Origin: a virus
Lineage: Duplodnaviria > Caudoviricetes
Virus record (IMG/VR): IMGVR_UViG_3300031867_000015
Coordinates: 51,129 to 115,128 of that record
Reading direction: 5' to 3' (one strand)
Length of the DNA: 64,000 nucleotides
In this document: positions 417 to 18,510 of the stretch, piece by piece
Layout of the letters: each line of letters starts with the position of its first letter
Position numbering within the stretch: position 1 is the first letter of the stretch
Notes under the pieces: generated by a model
Databases searched by the model: none
The model's input: the letters and a program-made list of their open reading frames with translations, nothing else
What the model was told of the DNA's origin: nothing
Translations under genes and position numbers: made by a program

Positions 417-439
417 TTAATTCCTCCTTTCATGATTCT

Positions 440-468: not shown

Positions 469-486
469 GAGCAAATTGAAATATTT

Positions 487-828
487 TTATTTTAACTTAA
501 TAACCCATCCGATTCCTTCCTCATGAACGCTGAATCCATATTTAACATAGAAGTCTTTTACACGTTCGCTGATAGTTCTGGTTTCTCCGTCATTCAGAAT
601 CCCTACCATTGCATCCCATGCTTCATGGGCTTCTGATGGTGTCATTTTATAGCGTTTAAGATTCCCATTATAAAATATATCTTCCAACGCTACCTTTGCT
701 TTTGTGACTTTTCTTGTGTCCACTGTTTTACCTCCGTTATATAATTCCGTTCTCTTTGAACTCTTTGAGAAGTCCGAATTTCTTTCCCATGCGTTCAAAG
801 TATCTTTGCATTTCTGTAAGTTCTTCAT
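487..828 (-). CDS. hypothetical protein
   Basis: ORF track; co-oriented with early arm; start uncertain. Confidence 0.55.
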   Translation of the reverse strand: MKNLQKCKDTLNAWERNSDFSKSSKRTELYNGGKTVDTRKVTKAKVALEDIFYNGNLKRYKMTPSEAHEAWDAMVGILNDGETRTISERVKDFYVKYGFSVHEEGIGWVIKLK

Positions 829-906
829 AGCTTAACTGAAACTCTGACATTGTATTCTGCCATTCAATAGCTTCTTGTCTCAGCTTTTCCTTTAACTCCT
901 TATACA

Positions 907-1296
907 TCACTCATACTCCTTTAAGACAGCTTCTTTTGCTGTCTCTGACAGCCGTAGTTCATATGGATATCCATATTTATTAGGACAGATATCTCTGCCA
1001 AAGGAAACTAATCTCCATGTTCCCTTATGATATCTACATCTTATCCATGAAGAATATGGTGTCCATCTGTAACAGTTTGGAAAGTGCTGACGGAAGTCAT
1101 AAACAAATTCCGTTCCTTCAACAGCTTTCTTGAATCCTCTTGGTGTAATAATATTTAATCGTTTTTCCACATCATTACAGATACCTTCTATTTGGTAATA
1201 GCTATAGAAGATTCTCTCTGTTGCTCCGCCCTGTATTACATTCAGCGCAGACATAATCTTTTCTGCATTGGATTCCTTTATGACGATTTCTTTCAT
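907..1296 (-). CDS. hypothetical protein
   Basis: ORF with AGGAGG RBS. Confidence 0.7.
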   Translation of the reverse strand: MKEIVIKESNAEKIMSALNVIQGGATERIFYSYYQIEGICNDVEKRLNIITPRGFKKAVEGTEFVYDFRQHFPNCYRWTPYSSWIRCRYHKGTWRLVSFGRDICPNKYGYPYELRLSETAKEAVLKEYE

Positions 1297-1310
1297 GATA
1301 ATGTTCCTCC

Positions 1311-1841
1311 TTACTTGATTCTGTTAAGTTCTCCACCGCACTTACAGCGGAACGACTGTGGATGTTCTATCACTTTACTCATGCGGTATCTTCCGATTTT
1401 TGCACCGCATTTCTCACATTGTACAACGTATGTAAATTTCTTTACAACGTCCTGTTCTTTCTCATCTACTCCCTTGTCGTTATCGTTTCCGCAACGCTTT
1501 ATATCTATTCCGTAACGGTCATAAACCATTTTAGCATATGTTTTCCACTGTGTACCATGACCGTGACAGTCAGGACAAGTATGAAGCAATTCATGAATCA
1601 TTGTATTCATAAGTCCTTCATCCGTAGGTGTATACTTTTCATTAATCAGCTTGTAAGATATGCTGATTTTAAAATCAGCCCTTTCTCCTGTGCCTATACT
1701 CTGTCTCCATGAGGTCTGTCCCCATCTTCTTTCCGCATGAGATACAGAAAGTTCCTTGATGTCTTTACAGTATGGGATGTTCAGTTCATCAAGCATCCTC
1801 ATACACTTTTCCATATAGTTTTTAAGTTTACGCTGTGCCAT
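1311..1841 (-). CDS. SprT-like zinc metalloprotease
   Basis: HELLH zincin motif, HG..WK, C-terminal CxxC...CxC zinc ribbon. Confidence 0.8.
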   Translation of the reverse strand: MAQRKLKNYMEKCMRMLDELNIPYCKDIKELSVSHAERRWGQTSWRQSIGTGERADFKISISYKLINEKYTPTDEGLMNTMIHELLHTCPDCHGHGTQWKTYAKMVYDRYGIDIKRCGNDNDKGVDEKEQDVVKKFTYVVQCEKCGAKIGRYRMSKVIEHPQSFRCKCGGELNRIK

Positions 1842-1854
1842 AGTTTAATCCTCC

Positions 1855-2370
1855 TTAATCGTAATATCCCCATGCTTCACGGTCTGCTATATCTCTTTCC
1901 AGTTCTGCTTCTGGTGTATGATGATAAGCAATAGCATCAGGAATTGTCCACTTGTCAAGTGAATATCCGCTTGCGCCCCCAATGTAGAAATAAAAACCTG
2001 TCTCATCCTGTTTGATATCAAAACGATGTAATGAATAAAGGTGTGGAATATCCGCTGTTAAAAGTCCTTTTAAATTCGCTTTAAGAGAAACTTCCGTAAG
2101 CTGTTCGCTTAAAAGTTTCCATGTTTCATCAACCTTATTTTTAATTTCTTTCTTTGGTGCTCCCGAAAAACTAACCATTGTCAAAGAGTTTCCACACTCA
2201 GGGTCATGTACTCTAAAAAGAAATTCCGCTGTATAAGCTGTCTCAGATTCTTCATCAAAGACCTCAACTGTACCCTGTATATATCCCTTTAAATATCCGC
2301 TTGTATAATATACTGCGCTGTGAGTCCATGATTTATTTGCAAGGTCATTTAAGATTAAGTTGATGTTCAT
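1855..2370 (-). CDS. hypothetical protein
   Basis: ORF with AGGAGG RBS. Confidence 0.7.
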   Translation of the reverse strand: MNINLILNDLANKSWTHSAVYYTSGYLKGYIQGTVEVFDEESETAYTAEFLFRVHDPECGNSLTMVSFSGAPKKEIKNKVDETWKLLSEQLTEVSLKANLKGLLTADIPHLYSLHRFDIKQDETGFYFYIGGASGYSLDKWTIPDAIAYHHTPEAELERDIADREAWGYYD

Positions 2371-2387
2371 ATATGTTTCCTCCTTAT

Positions 2388-2418
2388 GGAGAGTGAACTG
2401 TTATACAATTCACTCTCC
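2388..2418. promoter_or_regulatory. inverted pair of the phage box (operator-like palindrome)
   Basis: GGAGAGTGAAcTGT-tat-ACAaTTCACTCTCC. Confidence 0.6.
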
Positions 2419-2428
2419 GAATATATTT

Positions 2429-2833
2429 TTACTTGATTCCTAATTCGCTTCGTACATCCAATTCAGAAACCCTTCGTAATTCCATTGTCTGTAAATCGTT
2501 GTATGATTTGATTTCCAAACGATACATTTTGATGTAGTTATTTGTTCCATAGGTAGATGAGTTTTCAAGTCTTGATTTTACGAAAGAGTTTCCATCAACT
2601 CCGCTGTCTCTGATTCCGATGTAAAGCACATCATTTTCAAAGTTCTGAACGACTTTCTCTATCGCTGTCAGAGTATAATATAAATCGCTTGCGTAGTATT
2701 CGCAGGTCATTCCTGCCGCCTGTATAAGTTCCGTAAAGATATCCGAATAATTAATATTTGTTGTGGGTTCTCCATTGTATGAACTTGTGTAGACCTGTCC
2801 TTCGCAGGTGATTTTCTGTCCGTGATGTAACAT
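2429..2833 (-). CDS. hypothetical protein
   Basis: ORF with AGGAGG RBS. Confidence 0.7.
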   Translation of the reverse strand: MLHHGQKITCEGQVYTSSYNGEPTTNINYSDIFTELIQAAGMTCEYYASDLYYTLTAIEKVVQNFENDVLYIGIRDSGVDGNSFVKSRLENSSTYGTNNYIKMYRLEIKSYNDLQTMELRRVSELDVRSELGIK

Positions 2834-2845
2834 ATTATTTCCTCC

Positions 2846-3025
2846 TTAAAAATCAAAGTCCTCATAATCTTCCAGTGCAGATATAAGTCCGTCAAAATCC
2901 TCTGATGTTCCTAACATACTTGCAAGCATTGCAACTGTTCCGTAGTCAATTCCGTAATCATCCGCAAGACTTTCAAGATATTCCTTGCGATTTTCATATC
3001 CGTTTTCCTTATAAATGTTTGACAT
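2846..3025 (-). CDS. small acidic hypothetical protein (59 aa)
   Basis: MSNIYKENGYENRKEYLESLADDYGID...EDYEDFDF; AGGAGG RBS, first gene after promoter. Confidence 0.7.
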   Translation of the reverse strand: MSNIYKENGYENRKEYLESLADDYGIDYGTVAMLASMLGTSEDFDGLISALEDYEDFDF

Positions 3026-3085
3026 ATTGATTCCTCCTTATGCTTATGTATCATAGAGTGAATTGTATCTCTCTGCTATGGTTTT

Positions 3086-3114
3086 ATTATACCATATACA
3101 ATTCACTCTGTCAA
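3086..3114 (-). promoter_or_regulatory. sigma-A promoter with box in spacer and inverted box downstream
   Basis: TTGACA-gagtgaattgtatatgg-TATAAT; second box in opposite orientation at ~3055-3068. Confidence 0.85.
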
Positions 3115-3138
3115 GTGTTTTTTTATTATTTTTTTATT

Positions 3139-3417
3139 TTAACTTTCTTCGTATGTTCCGATAAGATATTTATGACCGCAGATTGATATTGTAATTTCTC
3201 CATTAGTAGTTGATACACGTTTATTTTTCTTCATCATGTTGATTCTTGCTTTCGTTTCTGAATCGTATTTCCAGAACATAACTTCTGCTGTTCTTCCGTG
3301 TACATCCGTTACATAAAATCCATCAACGGTTCTTTTCCAACCGTCATTATCTTCAATTACACGCTGTTTATCAAGCCATTTGTCTGACCAGTCAGGTGTT
3401 GCTTTTACTCTAAGCAT
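3139..3417 (-). CDS. hypothetical protein
   Basis: ORF with RBS. Confidence 0.65.
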   Translation of the reverse strand: MLRVKATPDWSDKWLDKQRVIEDNDGWKRTVDGFYVTDVHGRTAEVMFWKYDSETKARINMMKKNKRVSTTNGEITISICGHKYLIGTYEES

Positions 3418-3429
3418 TATTATCCCTCC

Positions 3430-4296
3430 TTAATAATCGTGTTCCATGCACCATTTGTTGAAGTCTCTTTTAGCTGATTTGAACGCTTCTTTCATAGTAT
3501 CGTTCATTTCTCCACATCCAGTTGAGTAAGCCGCTTCTGCAAATCTTCCACCATACATACATTCATAGTTGAAGAACTCATGGTAGAAAGCTTTTTTCCA
3601 GAACTCAAAATTGTTTGCAAGTTCTTCCTTTGCCTTTTCAATACTTTCCGCAAGATTGTTTATTTTCTTACAAAATTCCTTAGACTTATAGTAAGCGTGA
3701 GTTATCGCACTTACATACAGTCCTTTTGTTTCTGCTCTATACCATTCTTCCATGCCCTCATGATTAAAGATATGGAAACGTGATACATGGTTCTCTCTGT
3801 CTCCGTAGTAGTTGACAAGATAGTATTCACGGTTCTTTAAATCCGCATAAGATTTGATTGGAGTTGAAAGTTCTTCATCCGTGTACAGCTTTTCCGTAAG
3901 CTGTTTTACGTAAATTTCCTTTAACTCTGCATGAGTTTTTCCAGAACGATGAAGTTCATAGTCACCTGCGTATCTTATCTGATGACTGTTAAAGAAAACA
4001 ACCACAGAATATCCAAAGCCGTTTCCAAAGTCAATAAAATAGCAGTCATGCTCCTTTATTTTTTCATAGTCATCACTCATAACAATAGCGATTTCCTCTG
4101 TAATAGATTCGATATCATCAATTGTCCATTTATCCACGTTCTGAGCCACAGCAAGAGCCGCTGTTCCACTAATAATCTTATCAGGTTTTGTGATTGTCCA
4201 CATCTCGTCTGATAATACAGGAGCATTGTTCTCTCCGTAATATTCATTGAGTGCCTGTCTGATGTTTTTGTTTCTGTACATTTCCTTTACGTTCAT
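3430..4296 (-). CDS. hypothetical protein (288 aa)
   Basis: long ORF with AGGAGG RBS. Confidence 0.75.
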   Translation of the reverse strand: MNVKEMYRNKNIRQALNEYYGENNAPVLSDEMWTITKPDKIISGTAALAVAQNVDKWTIDDIESITEEIAIVMSDDYEKIKEHDCYFIDFGNGFGYSVVVFFNSHQIRYAGDYELHRSGKTHAELKEIYVKQLTEKLYTDEELSTPIKSYADLKNREYYLVNYYGDRENHVSRFHIFNHEGMEEWYRAETKGLYVSAITHAYYKSKEFCKKINNLAESIEKAKEELANNFEFWKKAFYHEFFNYECMYGGRFAEAAYSTGCGEMNDTMKEAFKSAKRDFNKWCMEHDY

Positions 4297-4375
4297 AGTA
4301 ATTTCCTCCTTTGATTTAGGTTTAAAACCCTTATATCAGGGCATCGGAATTTCCAATGCCCTATTATAAAAGTTC

Positions 4376-4555
4376 TCATACCTCTCTTACTACATTTTCT
4401 TTGACGAACTCCATATACCATTGTACGGTAAACCCTTTTTCTTTGGCATACTTTTCAAGGTATTCCAGTGTTGCATCATAAAGGGCTTTTGGAATATCTA
4501 CCCATTCGTCATATTTTCCGTGACCGTTAACATATTTTAAATTTCTCTGATACAT
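4376..4555 (-). CDS. small hypothetical protein (59 aa)
   Basis: MYQRNLKYVNGHGKYDEW...; RBS present. Confidence 0.6.
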   Translation of the reverse strand: MYQRNLKYVNGHGKYDEWVDIPKALYDATLEYLEKYAKEKGFTVQWYMEFVKENVVREV

Positions 4556-4567
4556 ATAAGTCCCTCC

Positions 4568-5011
4568 TTATACTTCGTGAATGTGCCATCCGTCTTTGTC
4601 AAGCAGGATATTATCTGCACATCTTTCCGCATTGTCTCCGCTGTTGTAAATGTCCATAATATATTTATCATCAATCACCTTTGTTAACTTCTGTAAATCC
4701 GCAAAGGATTTTCTTGTCTTGCTGTATGGAATTGTTCTAAACAATCCCAGTCCAGAAGATGAAGCCATACCATTTCCACAAGAACTGAATTTACTGATAT
4801 GCAGATTGATTTCCAGTCCTACCTGTCTAAAGTTCTGATACTTTTCCGAGAACCAAAGCTGTGCTTCGATATACTCAGTATCATTCAACTTGATGACCTT
4901 AACAGGCTGTTTCTCTCCGCTATGCATATAGAAATGTCTCAGGTCAAACTTCCAATTGTTTGACATTTTTTCGTTGTACTTCTGTACCTGTGCTGTTGTA
5001 ATATTTGCCAT
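4568..5011 (-). CDS. hypothetical protein
   Basis: ORF with AGGAGG RBS. Confidence 0.7.
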   Translation of the reverse strand: MANITTAQVQKYNEKMSNNWKFDLRHFYMHSGEKQPVKVIKLNDTEYIEAQLWFSEKYQNFRQVGLEINLHISKFSSCGNGMASSSGLGLFRTIPYSKTRKSFADLQKLTKVIDDKYIMDIYNSGDNAERCADNILLDKDGWHIHEV

Positions 5012-5084
5012 AATATTTTCCTCCTAAATTGTATATATTTTACTCTATGCCATGCGAATATAAAATCCGCATGGCTATTGTTTG

Positions 5085-5555
5085 TCAGCAAGTGAGTGTT
5101 GCTACCTTTATGGTGTCCACGAACTGTGAACCGTATATATCACGGATTCTGTTCATGGAATATCTTGAAGCCCTTCCTCCCTTCGTTTCATCATCCGCTA
5201 AGTAATAGCGTTTCTGCTTTGTGCTATATTGGAATCCCATTGACTTGATTTTTACAAGATACTTTCCTACGTTGTCAAGCCATATCCAACCGCCTATTAT
5301 CTCGATACGGATATCCGAAAAGTGTATCAGCTTTTCAATTATCCCTCTAAACTTCTCAGGGACTTCTTTTGAAGCTTTTTCCTTTTCCTTTTTGTTTCCG
5401 TGAGTAGCGAAATACTTAATCATTTCATCGTATTCGCTGTTGATTTTCTGCATTGTCTCCACATCACCGCCCATGTCAGGATGATATTTCCTGCACAGCT
5501 TGTGATATAATTTTTTCAGTTCATCCAGTGTCTTGACTTCTTTGAAAAAATTCAT
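5085..5555 (-). CDS. J-domain (DnaJ-like) protein
   Basis: LKKLYHKLCRKYHPDMGGD..MQKINSEYD with HPD motif; start moved to MNFFK (GGAGG RBS, promoter upstream). Confidence 0.8.
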   Translation of the reverse strand: MNFFKEVKTLDELKKLYHKLCRKYHPDMGGDVETMQKINSEYDEMIKYFATHGNKKEKEKASKEVPEKFRGIIEKLIHFSDIRIEIIGGWIWLDNVGKYLVKIKSMGFQYSTKQKRYYLADDETKGGRASRYSMNRIRDIYGSQFVDTIKVATLTC

Positions 5556-5608
5556 ATATGTTCCTCCGTTTCCAAAGAGTAAATTGTATATCTCTTTGCT
5601 ATGGTTTA

Positions 5609-5637
5609 AGTATATCATACAATTCACTCTTTGTCAA
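5609..5637 (-). promoter_or_regulatory. sigma-A promoter with box plus inverted box
   Basis: TTGACA-aagagtgaattgtatga-TATACT; inverted box ~5576-5590. Confidence 0.8.
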
Positions 5638-5667
5638 GTAGTTTTTATATATTTTTTTGTTTTAACT

Positions 5668-6321
5668 TTATCCCTCCCATTCTCCGTAAAGTCCCTGTGG
5701 CTTTTCAAAAAAGCTGTCGTTTTCTGCATCCACAAACACATCACAGGGCGCACGATGAAGCAGTTTTGATATCTCAATAATAGCTTCATCCCTTGGTTTA
5801 TCCGTTGTATATGTTCCTACTTGTGAAGCATAAGTCCACGAACCATCAGGAATTTTTGCGATAACTCCAAAAGTATAGGAAGTATAGGCTGTTTTCATTC
5901 TTCATCATCCTCCATATAATCATAGTCAATATCAAGTTTATCCATAAGTTCTTCCAATGCCATGACCTGTGCAGAACACCACTGATACTGCTCTCTTTTC
6001 CGAACGCTTCTTCTGTCCTCATCGTATGCCTTTTCAGCTTCTTCCTCTGCCTTTAAACATTCCGCATAATATTCAAGTATTTTCTGTTCCATGATATTAT
6101 CCTCCTATCTTTTCCGATATGATTTCCAGTACCCTTTTCTGTGTAGGAATATCCCACATACCGCCTGTACTGAATCCATCAATGGTCATATTCTGAATAG
6201 ACTTTCCATAAAGTTTGATACCTATGATATGACCATCAACTTCAAAAGTTCCGTTTAACCATTCGTTTTTGAAGTTGCGCATATGGTTTTTAACCATTGC
6301 AAGAAATTCCGCTTTATTCAT
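5668..6321 (-). CDS. three small hypothetical proteins (6097-6321, 5895-6092, 5668-5898)
   Basis: translationally coupled ORFs with RBSs downstream of the 6375-6403 promoter. Confidence 0.65.
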
Positions 6322-6374
6322 AATAATCCTCCTTATGTATCATAGAGCAAATTGTATATCTTTGCTGTGATTAT

Positions 6375-6403
6375 ATTATATCATATACAATTTGCTCTGT
6401 CAA
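6375..6403 (-). promoter_or_regulatory. sigma-A promoter with box plus inverted box
   Basis: TTGACA-gagcaaattgtatatga-TATAAT; inverted box ~6344-6358. Confidence 0.85.
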
Positions 6404-6430
6404 TAGCTTTTTAAAAAGTTTTTATTTTAA

Positions 6431-6919
6431 TTAATCCGTAACTCTTACAGTTTCCTCAAACGGATTAATCTCAATGTCAATTGAACCTGTTGTATCATCC
6501 GTAAACTCATAATAGATATGCGCTGTTGTAATTTCCGATATAGTCAGTTCATACTGTCTACACGGCTCTCCATTTACAAAGTCTATCTCATAATAGAGCA
6601 TAAGATTATCCACAAAATCTTCACGCTCCATATATTCAGTTGTGTAATTTTCCCACGCTATATCAACAATAGTTTCCTCATCAAGCGTGATTTCGTTTCC
6701 ATACGTGCAGTTATCTTCGTACCGTTTCCGTACTCCTACGGCATCCGCTATGGTTAATTCTCCGTCACCGTTGAAGTCAAGGTGTTCATGGTATTCCTCA
6801 TTGATTACCTTATCAATTATGATATCTGATATCTCAGGGGATATCCATGAATGATAGTTTTCCGCAGGTTGTGGTGTACCTGCAAGAAGTGAAAAGCACA
6901 TAAATAAAGTTTTTAACAT
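6431..6919 (-). CDS. secreted protein with dockerin/EF-hand-like repeat
   Basis: N-terminal signal-like MLKTLFMCFSLLAG; DFNGDGELTIADAV matches the dockerin Ca-binding loop DxNxDGxxxxxD. Confidence 0.6.
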   Translation of the reverse strand: MLKTLFMCFSLLAGTPQPAENYHSWISPEISDIIIDKVINEEYHEHLDFNGDGELTIADAVGVRKRYEDNCTYGNEITLDEETIVDIAWENYTTEYMEREDFVDNLMLYYEIDFVNGEPCRQYELTISEITTAHIYYEFTDDTTGSIDIEINPFEETVRVTD

Positions 6920-7239
6920 GATTATTCCTCCGTATAGTCTGTATCATCATATTCGCATGGTGCTTTATCGTCAGGGCATCGGTTCTCCCAGTGACAACAA
7001 GCACGTTCTTCGTCATCTTCTTTCCAGAAGTAGCAACAGTAACGTATGGTTCACCTATAGTCAATGATGTTTCCAGACCTATTGCATTAGCCTTCTTTGC
7101 GAACCTGTTAAACTGCTTTTGCAGTTCTTCCAAACGGTTCATAAAAATCGTCATTTCCATAACAGTACCTCCGTGATATGTATTAAGTGCAATGGCACTT
7201 TATGAAGCCTATCGAAAAATCCGATAGGCTTGAAAAATG

Positions 7240-7440
7240 TCAATACACAAAGTCAGTGTAAACAGTTTTGTTTCCGTCAAAGTATCGTGAATAGCTGATA
7301 TCGTCACATCTTCCGCAGTCGTATTTCTTTTCAGTTCTGTCATATTCTCCCTTGATGTAAACTTGACTATCTGTAACGTGCTTTTCTCCATGTGGTTTAA
7401 GGGCGAATAAATCGCCCTTTTTGAGTTCTTTTAATTTCAT
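7240..7440 (-). CDS. small hypothetical protein
   Basis: ORF coupled to upstream gene. Confidence 0.6.
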   Translation of the reverse strand: MKLKELKKGDLFALKPHGEKHVTDSQVYIKGEYDRTEKKYDCGRCDDISYSRYFDGNKTVYTDFVY

Positions 7441-7441
7441 A

Positions 7442-8023
7442 TTATCCCTCCATTGGCATTGGTGTTAATCCGTAGTCAGCACATTTGCTGACTACTTCAT
7501 TGTATGTAAGTTCCTTGACAATACGCATATTACCTGCAATTATCCAAGTTCCAAACATATTTGGATTGGTCTTGTAACGGTAATATCCGTGAAGGTCTAC
7601 CATTTCAAGCTGTGCATTTTTAGGAATGATTTTTCCCTGTTTGTTTCTGCCTTTTTCGTTTGCCATAGGCTGACAGTCAACAGTTGTTTCATATTCCACT
7701 AAGCACCAAACATGGTCTTTTTTCTGCACTTTGTTAAAACGTCTGCCTGTATTCTTTTCCAGTTCTGCACCATTATCGCAATAGTGTTTTCCGTATATGT
7801 GCGTAACATACGGACATTCCTCGTTTAAGTGCCAACCGCCACGGTAAGCAAGTTCTCCAAGCTTGCTTTTAACCTTGCCAGACTTTGTGCGTTCTCCGCA
7901 CTTTGCGAACATCCATGTATTCATGGGAAGGATTTCACTTGCATTGACATACAAGGGATGAAGATTTCCCTTGCTGTCTTTTCTGAAAAGTTTATATCCG
8001 TGAGCTGTTTTGATAATACTCAT
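7442..8023 (-). CDS. hypothetical phage protein
   Basis: 193-aa ORF, AGGAGG RBS. Confidence 0.7.
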   Translation of the reverse strand: MSIIKTAHGYKLFRKDSKGNLHPLYVNASEILPMNTWMFAKCGERTKSGKVKSKLGELAYRGGWHLNEECPYVTHIYGKHYCDNGAELEKNTGRRFNKVQKKDHVWCLVEYETTVDCQPMANEKGRNKQGKIIPKNAQLEMVDLHGYYRYKTNPNMFGTWIIAGNMRIVKELTYNEVVSKCADYGLTPMPMEG

Positions 8024-8346
8024 GATTATTTCCTCCTATTATGTATTTAGTAGTATTTCCAGTAGTCAGGGCTTTAGACCTTTTGACTGGTAACAAGCTA
8101 CATTAACGGTGCATCCGCACCGCCTATCTGTATTCGTATCTGTATTCGGTGGACGTTCCGCAAGTTGTGGGATATTCCCTCCCTTGCTTTCCGTGATGTT
8201 GGTATGATATTCAGTTGACGGAATTTCCTCCGCTGTCTGCATTGGAATTTCCGTCAGAATCTTTGCGTATGGTGGTAGTTCCGCAAGGTAATCAAAATAC
8301 GTTGTCCCTTGCCAAAGGTAAAAACGTCTATGGTATTTTCTTGTCA

Positions 8347-8619
8347 TTATTCCTCATCCTCCTTAATGAATAAGTGTACACAGTCAACCATGAAGTCAAA
8401 GGCAAAACTGCTGAAAGTTCCACCGTATTCAATATACAGTGAGTTGTCAGAGTGTTCCCAGATATCACGGCATATTGCTATGATATCCGCATCACTCATG
8501 CACTGGTCTGCACGTTTCAGCATAGCGGAATAATCCGCATTATTGCCCTTTGTGTACATTCTGTTCTTAATGCAGTAGTTGCGAACCTCGTCCGCAAACA
8601 TTGTTTTGTCAATTGTCAT
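8347..8619 (-). CDS. hypothetical protein
   Basis: ORF with GGAGG RBS. Confidence 0.65.
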   Translation of the reverse strand: MTIDKTMFADEVRNYCIKNRMYTKGNNADYSAMLKRADQCMSDADIIAICRDIWEHSDNSLYIEYGGTFSSFAFDFMVDCVHLFIKEDEE

Positions 8620-8713
8620 AATTCATTCCTCCATATGAAAATTAGCATCCGTCTACTTTGGATATGACGGAGTAGCTTTAAAGGACTACGTTTCCGCAGT
8701 CCTCCCATCAGCG

Positions 8714-8896
8714 TTATGCTTTTTCGTCTATTGAAAAGTAAGTGTAGAACAGTTCTACAGCGGATTCATCGTCAATGTTAGTTCCAGATTCCAGAAGTCT
8801 ATCTTCCAGATAGTCCTGACATTCGTTAAATGTTCCAGAGAACACAACGTCAGCAAAATTGCCGATTTGTTCCCATACCTGATATGTTTTCTCCAT
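8714..8896 (-). CDS. small acidic hypothetical protein
   Basis: ORF with GGAGG RBS. Confidence 0.6.
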   Translation of the reverse strand: MEKTYQVWEQIGNFADVVFSGTFNECQDYLEDRLLESGTNIDDESAVELFYTYFSIDEKA

Positions 8897-8936
8897 GATA
8901 TACCTCCATTTTTATTATACAATTCATTCTTTGTTA

Positions 8937-9254
8937 TTAAACGAATGAAAAGTCGCTTTTTATAACCTCGAATCCGATTGACTCTTGGTTGAAGGCTTGC
9001 TTTAAGGCGAGAGCCAGTCTTTTCATGCTCTCAATGTCAATGCCTGACACTTCGATTCTGAGTGTAGGCTCTTGTACAATCTCACCATTTTCGTGAGTGT
9101 ACACTCCGCAGGCTTCGGTAATTGTACCAAAGCCGATGATCTCCGTGAGAAGATTTGAAGCCACTTTGTAAGCGTCAAGAGTTGACACTTCCTGAGCCTT
9201 TGAATCCTTGTCGAATAAGCCACAGAATAAAATTACCTTAGTTGCATTTGTCAT
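8937..9254 (-). CDS. SAM lyase-like (T3 SAMase/DUF3574-type) anti-restriction protein
   Basis: GVY...QEPTLRIEV and LKQAFNQESI parallel the GxY...EExTVxV and AxxxxQDxV motifs of phage SAM lyases; start at MTNAT with GGAGG RBS. Confidence 0.6.
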   Translation of the reverse strand: MTNATKVILFCGLFDKDSKAQEVSTLDAYKVASNLLTEIIGFGTITEACGVYTHENGEIVQEPTLRIEVSGIDIESMKRLALALKQAFNQESIGFEVIKSDFSFV

Positions 9255-9332
9255 AATATACCTCCGTTTAAAGTCCATGAGACTATGTAATTGGTGCCAA
9301 TCATAGCGGATTTACGCTAATCTTGACATAAA

Positions 9333-9894
9333 TAAAGCGGTAAATCGTAAGAAATACCGCTTGACAAATCAGATAAATTATGATAAAATCAGTATGTAGG
9401 ATTAGTCACTCAGATTAGCCAATTGTAGCTTATTGCCAATTATGGCAACTTCGGTTACTCACAGGTACAATACTCTCATATTGCCGAGGGCTTCACAGCC
9501 TATCGTTTTACCCACCATCTGCATACAAGCTATAAAATACAGATGCATTTATTTTGACTATTTTTCACGCTAAGAGTGTATTCTTGCAAACGCACCCAAC
9601 CCTAATCAGTACACGATTTAAGACGGTTTTAAGACTTTCAGCTTTTTATCTCACAAGTCAAAATAGAGAACTACCAATATTTTGACCACGTTCCCCTGAC
9701 AGATGTATGCATCCTAAGCCGTTTTACTTCCCATTTGTCACTTTAGTAAAACTACCCCCGATACACCTAACACTACTTACAGATGTAAAGTCTGTTTTTG
9801 TGCGTTTTCAGTCAATTCGTGCTGTTTATTACAGCTTTACTTGCCTACTTTTCGCATCCGTGATACTTTAGTCAAACTACTATTTACCGCTTTA
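9333..9894 (-). ncRNA. large structured ncRNA candidate (~560 nt, ROOL-like)
   Basis: No ORF >=60 aa; 13-bp closing inverted repeat 9333-9345/9882-9894; internal helices 9550-9559/9656-9665, 9721-9728/9745-9752, 9433-9448, 9821-9835; downstream of three promoters. Confidence 0.55.
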
Positions 9895-10119
9895 CGTTGT
9901 GCTTTTTGGTTTAGCTGTAAAAAGATACAGCACCCCCCACGGCTCACTACAACACTTTTATCGTCAAATACATGGAGTTAGAGCGTTCTCACTTGCATTG
10001 ACTATCAGATTTTAGGTTACTGCAAACCACCTTTTTGCTATAGTATACCCCATAGACTTATAGGAAGGCTATTCCTACGATGAACATTCAGCAAGTCTTT
10101 TTCAAGTCCCTTGCTATGG

Positions 10120-10346
10120 TTTTATTCTATCACATATTCACGAATTTGTCAACTGTCAAATTGCACAAACTTTAAACCGTGTTTTTGTGATATCTGATAA
10201 ACTACATTGAAAAGCACTTTTCAGCTTTTTCAAGCTGTTTTTGTGTTTTGTTCATTTCGTTTACCGTGATTTTATTCTATCACATATTCACGAATTTGTC
10301 AACTGTCAAATTGCACAAACTTTAAACCGTGTTTTTGTGATATCTG
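10120..10346. repeat. 77-bp direct repeat (10120-10196, 10270-10346), 150-bp period
   Basis: identical ttttattctatcacatattcacgaatttgtcaactgtc...gtgatatctg; similarity continues imperfectly beyond. Confidence 0.9.
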
Positions 10347-10446
10347 TCAATCGGAGCAAATCAAACATTTTTCAACTTTTTCAAGCTGTTTTGTGTTGTT
10401 GTCTGTTGACAGTTATTATTATAGCCGATATTGCACACGATGTCAA
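10124..10446 (-). promoter_or_regulatory. three tandem leftward sigma-A promoters (10124-10152, 10274-10302, 10418-10446)
   Basis: TTGACA-17-TAGAAT twice and TTGACA-17-TATAAT. Confidence 0.8.
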
Positions 10447-12276
10447 TACTTTTTTTGACGTTCTACCTTTTGCACATATAATTATTGTTTTGCGATATCT
10501 TGTGTTGTATAAAATGCACTAAAAAAGGAAGAAAAATATACTCGATGTAGAAGTTCGGGTATATCTGATATTGATTTTTATACTGTCTGTATACTCTCTT
10601 TATATTCTAATAGGTATTATAATATTAATACCTATTAAATACAAAGAGAGCAATACGTTCATTTGATTTGCAAATAAGTTCTTATGAACCTATTACTATC
10701 AGAGCTGGAAACTGTATATACTGTATATGTACAATATATACAGTTTTGTAGTCCCGATAGATTCAACAGATAGTATAAATTATGTATCATTGGTTTACTA
10801 TTTGTATATTTTGCGACCGTGTAAACCTTTACTTTTTGTATAGTCTATTTATGGCTATTTATAGCGGTTTATTCACTGTTGAATAAAAATATACGATACT
10901 TTTTGAATATTTTTCAAATTGAATTTGACTGAATGTATAATAATTATTGTTTTTCAATATCAGTTTATTGAATAACAATATTATTGTTAACATAGTAAAC
11001 TAAATAGATGATATCAGGCTGTTTTGTAAAAAGATAAAATAAAATAGTCTTTTTGTGTTGTCTCAAAACAGTGTTTAAAATGCTTTTTGACGGCTTTTTA
11101 TTATCGGAATGATATTATATTACCCATATGTTACAAAGGGCATTAGAAACGATTTTGCTGTTTTGTAGCGATATACGGTAGTTTGAAGGCTGTTGAAAAC
11201 TTTGCTTTAATTGTTGAAAGTTGTATACATTGCACAAATGTATTCATTAAGTAGTGAATATTCATGAAGATAGATTCGGAGTTTATGCCTATATTTCGGA
11301 TAGAATCGGGATTTTATGAATATGAATATTCAGTATTTTGTGTATATTTTAGTGTGTTTTGGTGTTATATTACTTATTGTTTATTTGTATGGTATTTATA
11401 CAGATTGTTATTGAAGTGAATGTGTTATAGGTATAGACTATTAATTTTATTTGTGTTATTGGTTTTAGTTATATATTATTGGTGCATTGGTTATGTGTTA
11501 TGTTTTGATATCGGTATGATATCAAAATGATATCAAAAAATAAAAGTGTTGCAATTGCAACAAAACTACCGACAAAATCACTGTAAACTAAAATTGCTTT
11601 ACATATGTATATGGATATTATATAACAGCATTAAAAAAATATATATGAATGATTCTTCAATTGTTAAAGATTTATCGTATACTATTATAATATAAAAGGG
11701 AAATGTGTTAGGCGGTACTAACAGTAGGAAATGTGCGAACCTACTGTTAGCAAGCCCTAACTTGGCGATATATAGGGGATTGGTTTACATCGTAAAATCT
11801 TTTAACAACTGTTTTACACGGTAAAGGTATTCCATTCACAGCCTTCAAAAAAAATTACATACACTTCATATGCACCTTATATACACTTCACATACATTCC
11901 AAAATGCAATTCAAAATCATATAACTTCACACATACTCTTATTGCTTCTCCCCCTCACCTCTCTCCCTCAAAACTATCCCTTATCAGATATCGGCTTAAT
12001 ACATTCAATATAATATCTAATATTAAATTTCAAATAAACATCTCTTAATTCCTAAAAACTTAATCTAATCCAATCAAGAACGTATCTATCCTATTATTTT
12101 ATTATCTATATAATTAATCACTTTATAATACTCCTATTCGCTCTACAATAAACTACAATCAATTCTAACAACATAAGTAGTGTAACTATATTCTAATTAA
12201 TACAAAGCCTTACAGCGCATTTAAAAGCGTATTATAATACTATAAAATATTTCCCATTCAATAAATAAAAAACAAG

Positions 12277-12856
12277 TCAGATAGTTTTACCTTTAAGCGG
12301 ATGCGAAGCAGACGATTAAAGGTAAATCTGATTATGCGAGTATGAGAACGAGCGGAGCGAATGTTCTCATACGGCAGAATCAGACAATGCCATAGGCTAC
12401 AATTAAGATAGTATTAATTAATAATCCAGTGTAAAAAATTGGGGGTATGTTTAATAGTAGCTATGCAACAATTTTTGTAACGGTCTATTGACAAAGAGTA
12501 AATTGTATGTTATAATATAAGTTAGAATGTGAGATGATAATTGTAGGATATTGTGAAGATAATTGCCCGAACTCCGATTCTCTCCGTTCGTTCACTTATC
12601 TTCACGAACAATAATCCGCAAGCGGCTTATTGTTCCATCTCTTTTTTGTTTTTTATTTATTATTAATTATATTATATATATTTATATTAATTATATTATA
12701 TATTAATTATTGGCAAGCGTATCGGGTGTGTGTATTACGAGCAACGTAAACGACCAAAATCGGGACTATTTGCCTATGTATAGCGGTTTTTTAGGAATTG
12801 CACCCTCGCCTGAAATGTCCGAAAAAGGGGGTGTTTCTCGCCTGAAATGTCCGAAA
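12277..12856. other. putative replication origin (hairpins, AT-rich tract, two 20-bp iteron-like repeats)
   Basis: ctcgcctgaaatgtccgaaa at 12805-12824 and 12837-12856; almost pure A/T at ~12641-12711; GCGAAGC/GCGGAGC-capped hairpins; directly upstream of a Rep-like gene. Confidence 0.5.
12488..12516 (+). promoter_or_regulatory. rightward sigma-A promoter with phage box
   Basis: TTGACA-aagagtaaattgtatgt-TATAAT. Confidence 0.8.
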
Positions 12857-12870
12857 TTTTTAAAAACCTC

Positions 12871-12899
12871 TTGACAAGGAGTAAAATGTATAGTATAAT
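12871..12899 (+). promoter_or_regulatory. rightward sigma-A promoter with degenerate box
   Basis: TTGACA-aggagtaaaatgtatag-TATAAT. Confidence 0.8.
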
Positions 12900-12954
12900 A
12901 TAATTGCAGAAACGCATAGTGTTTCTAATAAATACAATTGAAAGGATTGGTTTA

Positions 12955-13953
12955 ATGGAGATAATACCAACAAACATTAACGAAGAAACAGGAGAAGTGA
13001 TAACAGAAAAAACCACATACACAGAAGAAGATATATATGCCGCCGAGGTCAAAGGACGAGAAGAAGAAAAAGAGCGAGAACGTCAAAATAAAAAAATAAG
13101 AAAAGAGTTTTACGAAAAGAAACAGAATTTAAAAATGGTTACATCAGAATTGGGTGGAAACTTCTTTTGGGGGATATATAATCCAATCGAAATATACTAC
13201 CCTACTTTATCCGATAGTATGCTTGTACAAGTAATGTATCTAATGACATATTTAAAATATAATGATAATGTTTTAGTTATTAGGGATGATTGTTATTCAA
13301 CCTATCGTTATATGACCAAAGAAGATGTGAAGAAGATTATTGGTGTAGATAAAACTCATTTCGCTCGTTTTTGGAAAGAACTTCTTAAAACTGAAATTGT
13401 CGCTGAACAAGAAGATGGTAAGCTAACTGTGTCCGAAAACTTTAAAAGGGGTTGTATAAAAAAAGATATTGGAGAAGATACTTGTGCTATAAAAATATTT
13501 TCACATTGCGTTAGATATCTTTATGAAAAGACTGAACCACGCTCACGAAAATATCTTGCAATGCTACTGCGATTCATTCCGTATATCAATGTAAAATACA
13601 ATGTGCTTTGTAGGAATCCATTGGAATTAGATGTGAATGAAATAGATTTAATGACAACAAAGGATATGCTGTCGCTACTTGGACTTGGGGAAAGACAAGA
13701 GAAAAGATTAATTGACACTTTATTTAAGATTTGTTTTATAGATAAAGATGGAAGTAGCAGAAGTGTAATTACTATTATCCAAAACGTCAAGGATGACAAG
13801 ATAAGAAAATTCATTACAATTAATCCTCAATTTTACTCAGGTTATTATTGTAATGAGGACATAGCACCAATAATCGCTGACAAGTGTATAAAAGAAAATA
13901 AAGCATTAAATATTAACCTAAAGGAAAACTATTATGAAAATAAAAGTGTATGA
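12955..13953 (+). CDS. putative replication initiator (tandem winged-HTH, RepL-like)
   Basis: two HTH-like segments (MTKEDVKKIIGVDKTHFARFWKELLK; MTTKDMLSLLGLGERQEKRLIDTL), ITINPQFY ending, adjacent repeats. Confidence 0.5.
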   Translation: MEIIPTNINEETGEVITEKTTYTEEDIYAAEVKGREEEKERERQNKKIRKEFYEKKQNLKMVTSELGGNFFWGIYNPIEIYYPTLSDSMLVQVMYLMTYLKYNDNVLVIRDDCYSTYRYMTKEDVKKIIGVDKTHFARFWKELLKTEIVAEQEDGKLTVSENFKRGCIKKDIGEDTCAIKIFSHCVRYLYEKTEPRSRKYLAMLLRFIPYINVKYNVLCRNPLELDVNEIDLMTTKDMLSLLGLGERQEKRLIDTLFKICFIDKDGSSRSVITIIQNVKDDKIRKFITINPQFYSGYYCNEDIAPIIADKCIKENKALNINLKENYYENKSV

Positions 13954-14311
13954 CGAGTTTAAGACATTCAGAGAATTTATTAATATTTGTAAGGGAGTAT
14001 GGAGGTTTTTGAAAAACAATAATTGTACTATAAAGAATCTCACTGTATACGTAACCCTTTATAACGAGAATAATAACTGTGAAGATATTAACCTTTATGA
14101 CAAAGATGGTAATATATCTTGTAAGAATGTAGGATTAATGATTGGGGATTTCCCTTATATCAATTGGGATGAATTTAATGAAAATAAGAAAATAGATAAG
14201 GGTAAGAAAATAATTGTTCGTTCAGAAGGGGATATGTTAAAACAACGTGATTATAATTTGAATTGCAATAGAGTTTATTATAAGGGAATAGATTTTGATG
14301 ACTTAGAATAG
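13934..14311 (+). CDS. hypothetical protein
   Basis: ORF overlapping upstream gene. Confidence 0.6.
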   Translation: MKIKVYDEFKTFREFINICKGVWRFLKNNNCTIKNLTVYVTLYNENNNCEDINLYDKDGNISCKNVGLMIGDFPYINWDEFNENKKIDKGKKIIVRSEGDMLKQRDYNLNCNRVYYKGIDFDDLE

Positions 14312-14338
14312 TTAAAAATATAAAATTTCATTTCCCTC

Positions 14339-14367
14339 TTGACAAAGAGCGAATTTTATAGTATAAT
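14339..14367 (+). promoter_or_regulatory. rightward sigma-A promoter with box, plus second box ~14405
   Basis: TTGACA-aagagcgaattttatag-TATAAT; agagtaaattgtata downstream. Confidence 0.8.
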
Positions 14368-14439
14368 ATATATAGAGGTAAACGATTTATATTTTAACCC
14401 TCATAGAGTAAATTGTATAATAGAAAGGTGGTGAACTTA

Positions 14440-17400
14440 TTGAAAGACTGGATTGACTACTTACAGACACTAACTAACGGTCAGTCGGACACGGAGCAGT
14501 ATGATAATGATGAATGGTCTGACCAATACTACGGTCTGTCAGAATATAGAGAGTATGCAGAGTTATGGTGTTAAACAAGGAGAATCGAATGGTAAACGAA
14601 TACAGGTTACACATTGTCTTAGCGATAGAAATGCTATTATGTGGTATATGGTGGACATACAAAGCAATTACGAAATCTCAACAAAAATTAGATTATTCCC
14701 TTGATATTATATTATGCGGATTGAGTTTTATATCATGCGGTATTAATCTTGGTTATCTTTTATATGCGAGGTGAGGAAATGTATATTAATAATAAATGGT
14801 ACACCGAGAGTGAACTTAATGCTTATGTTAAAAAGTTAGAAAGCACAATTTCAGAACTGGAAGATAAGCATTGGAATGAATGTAGACAGATTGCTCATTA
14901 CGAAGAAGAACTTACAGAAGCCAAGAGATTATTGAAGATTGCAGTTGAAAGTTTTGATAAACTGCTTGACACAGTAGTAGGGTTTGAGCAGAGATGTATT
15001 GTATGCGACTACGCTATGAAGTATGCTAATCCTTATGATGCGTGTAACTCTTGTCCTCTTGGGAATGGTAAACATAAGAGATGTACATGGAAGTTTAAAG
15101 AAGAAGCAATGAAGTTAATAGGAGTTCGTGAAGATTATGAGGAAGATTAATAAGAATGATGACCAAAGGGGATTTGTTAATTGAAGTCATGCAATATTGC
15201 TGTAGGGATATTTGTTATAAATGTCACAACTGCAATGTGGTTGATAGATGCCTAAATGATTTCTATGAAACTATACCGTGTGATTGTCCATGCAACGACA
15301 CTTGTCATGATATGACAATAATATCGTTTTGGTTAATTGACGAGGGAAAATATTAAAAGGAGTTAATATGAAATTATTCAGTGTGCAAGAGTTATGTTAT
15401 AAAGTATTGGGATGTTTTCGTCCTATTGCAGAAACAAATGTAGATAATGAACGATATGAACATCTGAAAGACTGGACTGAGTTCAACAGACATATTATAT
15501 ATGAATTGATTATGTGTGCCAGAAATGAAGATATGCGTTCATACGCTTCATCAAAACAGATTGTAGATTTGACAAGAGAACACCTTGACGAAATATATCA
15601 GTGGATAAAGGATGAGCGTAAGCTGTGGCATCCTGATTGTGAGGAAAATGATGAGTAAGAAAGAAACAAGATTAATGAAGTATCTGTCTGAGGTAGGTAG
15701 CATTACTTCGATGGACGCTATTAAGGAACTGGGAGATACCAGATTAGCCGCAACGGTATTTGAGTTAAGACGAAAGGGAATCAATATAATTTCAACATCT
15801 GAAACAAGTGTGAACAGATGGGGTGAAAAGGTAACTTATACAAGATATGTTTTACAGGAAGGGAATAACAATGACAAACAGACAGTGGCTTAATAATATG
15901 GCATTGATTGACCTGTTGAGTTTCATTAATGGAAATCTTGACAGTGATGAAAGATGTATTATTCAATTGCTTAATGATAATTATGATTATTGCCCTAAAG
16001 AGTTTGCACCAGTGTATGAAAGAAATTATACAACAAGTTACCCATACAAGTTAATCGAACCTGCAAAATGTTATGAATGTATTTGTGCATGGTTAAATAA
16101 GGAGAGAAACAAATGAAACTATCAGTGGTATTACTACGATTATTAAAAATGATTCAAGATGATTGTAGTAAACATAATTGCAGTCATTGTAAGTTTAAAA
16201 AGAACATCTATATGCATGAACCATGCTTATTAGGTTATCCCCATAAATGGAAATTAGATGAACTTACTGATGATATACTGCGACAAATACCAGAACTTGC
16301 TTTTGAATTTGACCATTGGGATTTATATGATTTATTTGCACAAGAAGCTGAGGAAGAATGATAAGGAGAGATAATATGGATTTAAACGATATTAAACAGA
16401 AAGCATGGGAATTTAAAGGAGCAACAAGTTACTGGACTGAGATTCATGCAATAAAGGATGATTTGAATTTATTAAATCCTCTTGCAAAAAGGATTAAGAC
16501 TTGTTCGTTTCCACTTGAAGTAAGAATAGCAAACCGAGCATTTGATATGATATTTAAGGATTGGGGTTACAATGTAAACTACGTTGAAGATGTTTATGCT
16601 GTATATACTATGCTTACTGAAATTGTAAATGATATATATAATGAATCAGAAAAGTATACCGATAAAGAGAAACGTGACTTTCTTGAATGGTGTTATGATT
16701 CTGGGATTGATGTATCTACGTTTGTAAAATGTACAATTGATTGTTCCAGAGGAATTGCAGGAACTATTACTAAAGTTGATGCAATAATGAGGGAAATCGA
16801 AAGAGAGCGTGGAGAATGAGTATGAGCGAATTGAATGAATGGGCTGAACGCTGTCAGCAAGACGGTATAGAAGTATGGAGACTTGAACATGAATCAGATA
16901 TAACAGGACTATATATGACAAAGAAGAAAATAGGTAATGGAGTTCCATACTACAATTGGACTTCACCCATATATCATATTTGGATAAATGATAAACGAGT
17001 ATTTACCTGTATGAACTATCGTGATGCTTATGAGATTTATAAAAATGAAAAGGAGAGATTTGAAAATGATTAATTTATTATCTGCGATTACATTATCTGT
17101 AATAGGTTCTACTCTTATTAGTAGACGTACCAACAGCAAGGACAAGTTTGATTTTATTATGACTATGGCTATTTGGTCATTGATATTATCTGGCATGAGT
17201 TTAGCCAAATTCTTTGAGGGGTAATTAATTATGAATACCAATTGTGAAGAATGGTGCAGAATTGAATGTGGTGAATGTAAATGGTTTAAAGTCAATGCTG
17301 ATATGGACGGTGTTGAATCTACCTGTAAGAGATTAGACCACAAGCATTTAAGATTTGCCAAAAAGATTTTTAAATGCTACGATTGTGGGTGTTTTGATAT

Positions 17401-18395
17401 AAATACCTGTGCTGATTTTGAACCAGATGAAAAGAAAGTGCCATGGCTGTATAATCATTGGGATAAAGTCAAAGAGCAAATTATACCTTATGGAGAATTT
17501 GCTTGTGTTGAACTTAATGTTGACGGAAATACGGATGTGAGATATTGTGTGTTAGGTTCAGATTTTTATAATAACACTTTTATTAATGAAGATGGTTCTC
17601 TTAAATGGAGATATAAATATTATTCAGTTCCAGATAGAAAGAGTCCTATAAAGTATCGTATAGTTTATGAAACACCTGATGGACTAAAACTGACACAGGA
17701 ATTATGTAAGTTATATGATAGGGGGTTATTACAATTGACATTTGAAACTTTAAAGAAGGTTCTTAATAAAGGCGATAAGCATGGGTCAGCTTTCAATGAA
17801 ATACTTGACTACTATCATATAGAAAACAAAGACCTTACTAAGATTACAGAAGATATGGCAAAGAATTGGTTGGAAAGGAAGTGACAATAATGTGTTCAGC
17901 AACTACTAAAAGGATAGCTTCATTTAGTAAGACCGATAAACATGAGACTTTAACAATGCTTATGGATTGGTATGGACTTAATGACCTTGAAAATATTCCT
18001 GAGACTGCCGCATTAGAATTTCTTGCAATGCTTGAAAGTGGTGAGGTAAAGGTTTGATAAGAATTGTTTTGCTTGATTTATTACTTGATATATTTGTTGC
18101 AATAACACTTGTTGTAGTTTATCACATTGTAGATATAATCGCAATAGATATTTTATATGGCAAGGGTATTGCCAAGTTTGATAGTGATTACCAATTTGAT
18201 AGACTTGTGTCAATATTAATAATTGGCTTGATACCAATAATTAATATCATGTGCTTGTGTTATATGCTCTGGACATTTGAATACAGAGTTGAAGCATTTA
18301 CATGGGGTATATATAGATTGGCACGAAAGAAACATGGAGTAATTGTAAGAAAGACAATAAAGACAAGAAAGAAGGAAATAAGAAATGATATTTGA
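14440..18395 (+). CDS. run of about 14 small hypothetical genes (several Cys-rich or membrane; HTH protein ending 15893)
   Basis: tightly packed co-oriented ORFs with RBSs; SITSMDAIKELGDTRLAATVFELRRKG is HTH-like; 14440-14574 is an unlisted 44-aa acidic ORF. Confidence 0.6.
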
Positions 18396-18510
18396 TAAGT
18401 ATTCAATAGTTTGCGACAGTGCGGATTACAAGTGGTGTTCCAAGAAAGGCAGATGGTGTCATAAAGATTCGTTTGGCTTTGAGTGTAAAGAGTGTAATTG
18501 GAGATGATGT

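Follow-up and report, generated by a model that had tools for sequence, protein, structure and literature searches.

The early region of phages T7 and T3 starts with the tandem host-polymerase promoters A1-A3, which are followed by a leader and the anti-restriction gene 0.3, the product of which is Ocr in T7 and a SAM hydrolase/lyase in T3. A structured leader is controlled by a complementary RNA in several other elements, including the CI RNA in the early leader of phage P4, the c4 antisense RNA of P1/P7, and the RNA I/RNA II pair of ColE1. The regulators of these systems are approximately 70-110 nt long and target the 5′ part of the leader, and a swap of their sequence changes the specificity, which is expressed as heteroimmunity or compatibility. 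Phage SPbeta carries bsrG/SR4, a type I toxin-antitoxin locus with a convergent toxin mRNA and antisense RNA. We know of no function for the ROOL and GOLLD RNAs, nor of a genomic setting that suggests one. They are large ornate RNAs of phages and prophages, usually located beside tRNA islands (PMC12286853). Coliphages 186 and P2 employ face-to-face promoters, separated by about 60 bp, as switches that use transcriptional interference (PMC5001618).

The locus described here comes from a rumen phage in IMG/VR, the record of which is 115,128 bp long and rated complete by CheckV. The window, which is the whole stretch of 64,000 nt that was analysed, comprises bases 51129-115128 of that record, and its numbering is used throughout. 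The phage is SPbeta-like, judging from its terminase, which shares about 33% identity with the terminases of SPbeta-like phages of Bacillus and Clostridioides, and from a YonO/RdRP-type polymerase domain. The domain belongs to an 888-aa protein encoded at 19910-22576 on the plus strand (eukaryotic-type RdRP/YonO-like two-barrel polymerase, PF05183, E-value 5.7e-15), which marks the phage as SPbeta-like with a putative late RNA polymerase of its own. The C-terminal part of a tyrosine recombinase/integrase at 63846-63992 on the minus strand (PF00589, 31.7 bits) is truncated where the record stops, and hints at a temperate lifestyle or at a permuted record. Genes point leftward left of 9278 and rightward right of 12955. 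The gap between the two gene arms is a 3.6-kb control region that is almost free of open reading frames (ORFs) and rich in palindromes, and the RNA cassette forms its left quarter.

The head of the leftward arm resembles the T7 and T3 early region in having three strong tandem host-type promoters approximately 125-150 bp apart, a non-coding leader, and an anti-restriction-type first gene. Unlike in T7 and T3, the leader extends for 790 nt past the proximal promoter, has a covarying fold, a terminator, and an opposing promoter, and is subject to cassette exchange. The parallel is striking but, by all appearances, convergent; the phages are unrelated. The elements that delimit the cassette are, in the order of leftward transcription:

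10446 to 10418, minus strand: P(-)3, the distal tandem promoter, TTGACA-17-TATAAT, 12/12 consensus positions
10373 to 10395, plus strand: second copy of the plus-strand hairpin with a T-run
10302 to 10274, minus strand: P(-)2, TTGACA-17-TAGAAT, 11/12, with a TG extension, in a 150-bp tandem repeat unit
10222 to 10247, plus strand: terminator-like hairpin with a T-run, found by the terminator scan, a possible end of the antisense transcript
10152 to 10124, minus strand: P(-)1, the proximal promoter, 11/12, TG-extended, in the 150-bp tandem repeat, with a predicted start at about 10117
10117 to 9327, minus strand: sense non-coding RNA of about 790 nt from P(-)1, longer from P(-)2 and P(-)3, ORF-free and purine-rich
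10115 to 10090, minus strand: 5′-proximal hairpin with an invariant GAAA tetraloop at 10100-10103
9882 to 9894: segment complementary to 9333-9345, itself invariant, with the complement in this phage only
9361 to 9389, plus strand: P(+), outward-pointing antisense promoter, TTGACA-17-TAAAAT with a TG extension, abutting the terminator
9362 to 9327, minus strand: predicted intrinsic terminator, stem 9350-9362/9335-9344, U-tract 9327-9334, -13.3 kcal/mol
9254 to 8937, minus strand (ORF also given as 8937-9278): first early gene, 105 aa, with a weak S-AdoMet-lyase match

The initial annotation had reported an ORF-free stretch at the head of the early operon, behind a triple promoter, with a purine-rich minus strand and without a repressor box, and each of these observations is borne out. 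No ORF of at least 60 aa is present on either strand between the 8937-9278 gene and 10240 when read with table 11, the longest being 54 aa; recoding of TAG to Q, TGA to W, or TAA to Q does not open the region, and the plus strand contains no credible ORF before 12955. The three minus-strand promoters, like the others discussed here, are matches to the sigma-70/sigma-A-type consensus, from which their activity is predicted. Purines make up 57% of the minus strand over 9393-10118, and the G+C content and strand skew of this block fit the leftward early genes and not the AT-rich remainder of the gap, whereas an RNA read from the plus strand of the cassette would be G-poor, with 15% G. The operator-like box AGAGYRAATTGTAT occurs at 21 sites in the window, compared to 4.2 expected, and the sites are spread over 179-19915 in both arms. 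None of them is located between 8931 and 12494, so all three minus-strand promoters are without a box; one copy, at 8917-8930, directly follows the first gene. Together with that gene, the RNA cassette thus forms a box-less unit ahead of the box-bearing promoters, and the missing box suggests that the cassette may be expressed in lysogens.

The first early gene product matches PF23780 (S-AdoMet-lyase) with an E-value of 7e-4, which is below the cut-off, and its remoter homologues carry the domain; we therefore call it SAM-lyase-like or anti-restriction-like on a weak match. The protein has at least 140 metagenomic relatives. Matches to the type-P5 twister ribozyme are located inside the leftward early operon of the phage group: at 8067-8132 on the minus strand of the window (37.2 bits, just below the gathering score of 37.6, E-value 5.7e-5), and in relatives, two of the scores being 45.8 and 55.5 bits, at 6336-6395 of L004/L005, 3182-3242 of L017, and 2957-3022 of L016. 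The matches suggest self-cleaving processing of early mRNAs.

A scan of metagenome contigs, in which stop-free frames of the cassette served as pseudo-proteins, found true homologues of it in two contigs, L009 (1.6 kb) and L010 (3.0 kb), and all comparisons of the cassette are therefore among three sequences. The two contigs are 81-86% identical to the window overall (blastn). Identity of the cassette to L009 is 90% at 9393-9560, 95% at 9561-9800, and 96.5% at 9801-10118. The adjacent gene is 71% identical to that of L009, with 58 of the 91 differences at codon position 3, and the promoter regions are about 60-67% identical. The ORF-free block, which exceeds both, is thus the best-conserved part of the locus. 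Its high conservation could reflect selection, recent exchange, or both. Indels between the cassette homologues measure 1-2 nt and 13-24 nt. The cassette had no blastn match among 50,697 phage records, and neither an exact 20-mer search nor a pseudo-protein scan of IMG/VR produced a match, while in genome contigs the pseudo-protein scan returned nothing but spurious matches of 22 aa, in Flavobacteriales. L017 and L018 were the only loci contributed by an alignment-based scan for the neighbour gene.

At 9327-9362, the minus strand has a G+C-rich stem followed by a U-tract, as expected of an intrinsic terminator on the transcribed strand. In all three sequences, an 8-10-bp stem precedes UUUAUUUAU on the minus strand. 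The stem of L009 and L010 is different and fully compensated, forming a perfect local 10-bp hairpin (-15.4 kcal/mol) with the same U-tract, and the L010 copy was called by the terminator scan. The terminator is positioned 70 nt before the first early gene, which sets the minus-strand unit at about 10117 to about 9327, or approximately 790 nt. P(-)1, from which this unit would start, is kept in L010, where it is present as two tandem copies. The minus-strand block 10117-9327 is a genuine, single bounded non-coding transcription cassette that heads the leftward immediate-early arm.

The closest phage in IMG/VR, L002, has a neighbour gene that is 98% identical to that of the window, and a different cassette. 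The similarity of L002 to the window ends at 9316 and resumes at 10108, and the intervening 9317-10107 is replaced by approximately 600 unrelated ORF-free nucleotides that contain one sense promoter and one antisense promoter with a 12/12 match. The cassette sequences of L004/L005 and L003 differ again from both the window and L002. The window, L002, and L004/L005 have a common layout, with a sense promoter 680-1170 nt and a consensus promoter 60-100 nt upstream of the first gene, the latter directed away from the gene. L002 and L004/L005, and partly L003, share a common core of about 230 nt with 79% identity, which includes a GCAG-loop hairpin with two compensated pairs and with G·U-tolerant changes on the sense strand. 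An nhmmer profile of the window cassette detected no homology to the other cassettes beyond promoter elements, and a core-motif search for the other cassette type found no loci beyond those already in the set. Because the window cassette and those of the L002/L004 type are unrelated, at least two RNA families occupy the slot.

The exchanged block is bordered on the left by CGTAAATCCG, a short motif at 9290-9316 in the 5′ untranslated region of the first gene, which is kept in L002, L004, and L017 despite their differing cassettes, and on the right by a shared AAACCATAG just past the sense start. Upstream of the cassette, P(-)3 and a plus-strand promoter (TTGACG-16-TATAAT, 10455-10482) form a divergent back-to-back pair at 10418-10482, which is also present in L002 and L010 and opens into the AT-rich gene-free zone. 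Within the gap, an ORF-free segment of 2 kb (10950-12955) shares 94% identity with L002 and also with L010. Its features are long palindromes, an inverted strand skew, and, at 12488 and 12871, two rightward promoters that match the consensus at 12/12 positions. It could represent an origin, a terminus, or a further conserved non-coding element.

The outward promoter P(+) is oriented back through the entire cassette. Its -35 element, TG extension, and -10 element are kept in L009 and L010, where the spacer and downstream sequence vary, and a 12/12 promoter occupies the same position beside the unrelated cassettes of L002 and L004/L005. At the far end of the cassette, CUUGAAAAAG recurs after each of the three tandem promoters; its minus-strand reading is a 5′ hairpin with a GAAA cap, and its plus-strand reading a hairpin with a T-run behind it. 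The T-rich tail 3′ of the 10090-10115 hairpin makes it resemble an antisense terminator on the plus strand; this reading of 10090-10122 was made by eye and was not called by the scan, which called the copy at 10222-10247. L004 has two antisense-strand terminators 20-65 nt from its sense start, and six T's follow a hairpin at the equivalent place in L002. Owing to P(+), the hairpin-T sites at the far end, and the layouts of the sister phages, the locus resembles two fully overlapping convergent non-coding units. Each unit looks to have its own promoter and terminator, in an architecture that is conserved while its sequence is exchanged. The initial annotation missed both the conserved antisense promoter and the swapping of cassettes between sister phages.

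The convergent promoters of the locus recall those of coliphages 186 and P2 in that polymerases must collide and a strong promoter on the lytic side is opposed by a weaker one. Unlike in 186 and P2, the promoters are separated by about 750 bp, the opposing transcript encodes neither a repressor nor another ORF, and the intervening DNA is conserved and structured. A switch of the 186/P2 type was rejected: convergent promoters are present, but the plus strand has no credible ORF for an immunity repressor before 12955. The arrangement of a structured early leader with a putative complementary RNA, and of specificity that would change by swapping, is analogous to P4, P1/P7, and ColE1. It differs from them in that the antisense RNA starts at the 3′ end of the leader and would span all of it. 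Processing sites or target boxes of the kind used by P4, P1/P7, and ColE1 were not identified in the cassette. The ColE1-type RNA I/RNA II arrangement was rejected because the antisense promoter (9361-9389) is at the 3′ end of the sense RNA and not at its 5′ end; within about 100 nt of P(+), the plus strand has no conserved terminator, and the lone hairpin there, 9488-9501, is an insertion specific to the window. A type I toxin-antitoxin locus was rejected because no small ORF is conserved: the sole hydrophobic one (31 aa, at 10080-10175) loses its frame in L009 and is cut short by an early stop codon in L010.

The RNAalifold consensus of the minus-strand alignment of the three sequences contains 215 base pairs, ten of which are changed on both sides. 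This exceeds the 3.4 ± 1.5 double-sided changes in shuffles, none of 500 of which reached ten, and the 0-1 obtained with pairing partners slid by 1-3 columns, and is to be taken as support rather than proof, as the three sequences are about 8% diverged and the structure was derived from the same alignment. The compensated pairs are concentrated in four helices, which are the first three listed here and the terminator:

9808 to 9815 with 9696 to 9703, minus strand: helix that closes a domain of about 120 nt, three compensated pairs in two different homologues, arms 105 nt apart
9745 to 9766 with 9707 to 9728, minus strand: long hairpin, three compensated pairs, three invariant G·U pairs and two more in two of the three sequences
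9537 to 9545 with 9516 to 9524, minus strand: hairpin, three compensated pairs
9574 to 9597, minus strand: hairpin with an invariant GCAA tetraloop (9584-9587), kept in the window copy through three G·U pairs
9483 to 9506, minus strand: inserted hairpin with a GUGA tetraloop in the minus sense, present in the window only and absent from L009 and L010

Owing to its G·U pairs, the outer half of the 9707-9766 hairpin forms fully only on the minus strand. The 5′ 320 nt of the RNA are nearly invariant, so that, at a divergence of about 8%, most of the fold is a prediction. Unpaired stretches of the cassette are as invariant as the stems. The cassette thus combines the lack of a conserved reading frame with base pairs that appear to be kept by compensatory change, as expected of a structured RNA.

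Parts of the fold proposed in the initial annotation have to be revised. It joined 9333-9345 to 9882-9894 in a perfect 13-bp helix that enclosed the other helices and set a unit of about 560 nt. The complementarity exists (17 nt, 94%), but in this phage only. In L009 and L010, the 5′ arm of the helix is replaced by a different local hairpin, 9882-9894 is unchanged, and neither contig has an upstream complement to the local hairpin; the conserved structure is therefore the local hairpin, which is the terminator. The 13-bp helix was thus rejected as a conserved closing helix or antiterminator. The terminator stem type of the window also occurs with a different cassette in L004/L005. The conserved unit is accordingly that from about 10117 to the terminator at 9362-9327, and 9895-10118, which had been considered a possible separate RNA, is the best-conserved part (96.5%) and a third of the same RNA. 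Among the proposed nested helices, covariation supports 9721-9728/9745-9752, which is part of the long 9745-9766/9707-9728 hairpin, and 9516-9521/9540-9545. The segment 9433-9448 and the repeats 9550-9559/9656-9665 are invariant in the three sequences, and the consensus fold pairs these repeats differently. A pseudoknot between 9697-9705 and the loop at 9732-9740 is unsupported, because 9696-9703 pairs with 9808-9815 through three compensated pairs, and L010 changes the segment without a change in the loop.

The evidence on which strand carries the fold is mixed. Folding z-scores of the cassette body alone, relative to dinucleotide shuffles, are -1.0 on the minus and -2.4 on the plus strand for the window, -3.1 and -3.2 for L009, and -2.6 and -4.8 for L010. 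The scores are modest, with a range of -1.0 to -3.1 on the minus and of -2.4 to -4.8 on the plus strand, equal or better on the plus strand, and of no use in choosing between the strands. The RNAalifold covariation term is -2.41 for the minus strand and +0.81 for the plus strand. At least nine plus-strand pairs break as A·C where the same pairs are G·U on the minus strand, and one-sided changes in helices predicted on both strands result in G·U six times on the minus and twice on the plus strand. Three of the six consensus tetraloops are invariant GNRA loops (GAAA, GCAA, and GAGA) in the minus sense only, compared to an expectation from composition of about 4% per loop, and the window-only hairpin also has a GNRA loop (GUGA). 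The plus-strand versions of the tetraloops are UUUC, UUGC, UCUC, and UCAC, none of which has a meaning that we know of. The 9574-9597 hairpin of L009 and L010 is perfect on the plus strand and has one C·A mismatch on the minus strand. We consider it likely that the minus strand is the structured one, and correspondingly unlikely that the plus strand is.

A large non-coding RNA with conserved secondary structure is probably the first product of the tandem box-less promoters. For its role we lean, short of thinking it probable, towards a reading in which the cassette is a new structured leader or non-coding RNA that, with a full-length antisense partner, gates the immediate-early arm. Most leftward transcripts would stop at the terminator and give rise to a stable folded RNA of about 790 nt, and the read-through fraction would supply the anti-restriction-like gene. 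P(+) would oppose leftward transcription by polymerase collision and would also yield a full-length complementary RNA, the pairing of which may expose the leader to double-strand-specific cleavage. Since sense and antisense RNAs originate from the same DNA, a swapped cassette would keep self-recognition and change its specificity, and such a change would account for exchange between phages, as in RNA-based immunity. The promoters, terminators, and their spacing, the lack of an ORF under any code, the conservation, the covariation, the minus-strand signs, and the cassette swap are all consistent with gating. It is weakened by the restriction to three sequences, by conservation that could stem from recent exchange, by a terminator efficiency and P(+) activity deduced from consensus, and by folding z-scores that are modest and as good or better on the plus strand. 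Moreover, a 700-nt leader far exceeds the needs of any known attenuator, no conserved antiterminator was found, and if both box-less promoter sets fired simultaneously, the immunity logic would need an extra regulator. The discrete promoter-to-terminator unit with its 5′ hairpin, the unpaired stretches that are as invariant as stems, and the GNRA loops would also suit a large structured RNA that stands alone and acts in trans, a possible parallel to ROOL and GOLLD; it would be freed by its own terminator as the bulk first product of infection, and we find this reading doubtful. Also doubtful is the corresponding mode of action, in which the RNA would act on a target in the host or in a rival, for instance by inhibiting or decoying a defence system or by forming a scaffold, and the antisense promoter would do no more than limit or time it. 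A trans-acting role would also fit with a location immediately ahead of an anti-restriction-like gene, with a slot that is exchanged in the manner of accessory counter-defence loci, and with promoters that lack an operator-like box. No target was found, however, the longest complementarity elsewhere in the phage genome being 15 nt (E-value 0.07); the RNA has no homology to any known RNA in Rfam 15, and the antisense promoter and terminator kept in every cassette type are left unexplained.

It is improbable that the plus-strand RNA is the product, as a moron-like autonomous non-coding RNA gene inserted backwards in the early leader, with its promoter at 9361-9389, its terminator at about 10090-10122 or at 10222-10247, and the minus transcript merely a long 5′ untranslated region. 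The dedicated conserved promoter, the terminator-like sites in all cassette types, the equal or stronger folding z-scores on the plus strand, and the 9574-9597 hairpin, which in L009 and L010 is perfect on the plus strand and has the C·A on the minus, would be expected of such a gene. Its RNA, however, would contain only 15% G, have UUUC, UUGC, UCUC, and UCAC tetraloops in place of GNRA, and lose several G·U pairs of the covaried 9745-9766/9707-9728 helix as A·C, and it would have no need for a compensated minus-strand terminator. A block without function at the RNA level, either a recently exchanged spacer or a DNA element such as an origin, packaging, or recombination zone, is quite improbable, as is the associated origin of the hairpins as quasi-palindromes kept by template switching. 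The position within a 3.6-kb ORF-free, palindrome-rich control region and the block-wise identity with sharp borders, a pattern of recombination, are what such a block would show, and three sequences with modest folding z-scores would allow it; it is contradicted by compensated pairs across arms 105 nt apart in two independent sequences, by the enrichment of GNRA loops on one strand, by promoters and terminators that bracket the block precisely on both strands, and by a G+C content and skew like those of transcribed early genes rather than of the AT-rich remainder of the gap. The initial annotation had called the RNA ROOL-like and proposed a search of Rfam for ROOL, GOLLD, and OLE. Rfam 15 matched only two tRNAs (28270 and 28515) in the whole window at the gathering score; at 9200-13000, with an E-value up to 10 and permissive filters, it gave only noise matches to miRNA and ctRNA models; and in L009 and L010 (E-value up to 0.1) and the sister cassettes it gave only twister matches, all outside the cassette. 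ROOL, GOLLD, OLE, HEARO, and raiA were rejected for lack of a covariance-model match. The RNA is similar to ROOL and GOLLD in being several hundred nucleotides long, non-coding, and phage-borne and in having many hairpins, and ROOL is also known from the rumen. Unlike ROOL and GOLLD, it is situated away from tRNAs, as a leader with tandem early promoters on one side and the first early gene on the other; it faces an antisense promoter of its own, and three sequences of it are known. The similar size, phage origin, and rumen source of ROOL (PMC12286853) notwithstanding, a divergent member of the ROOL/GOLLD/OLE group is very improbable: matches are absent at the gathering score and at E-values up to 10, and for the homologues at up to 0.1, and there is no tRNA island nearby, the nearest tRNAs being 18 kb away.

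The setting of the cassette RNA is sharply defined. It would be the first immediate-early transcript, located before an anti-restriction-type gene, with its own terminator and antisense partner, in a swappable slot, and this makes concrete experiments possible. More speculatively, and in our estimate rather unlikely, the cassette may represent a new class of structured phage RNA of about 0.6-0.8 kb that forms, with its full-length antisense RNA, an RNA-only specificity module at the start of infection. Such a module might serve in superinfection immunity or counter-defence and be shuffled among SPbeta-like rumen phages to escape each other or the host, which is an equally speculative proposal. 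If true, early control in phages of Firmicutes, or the conflict of such phages with one another or with the host, would gain a layer that operates at the level of RNA.
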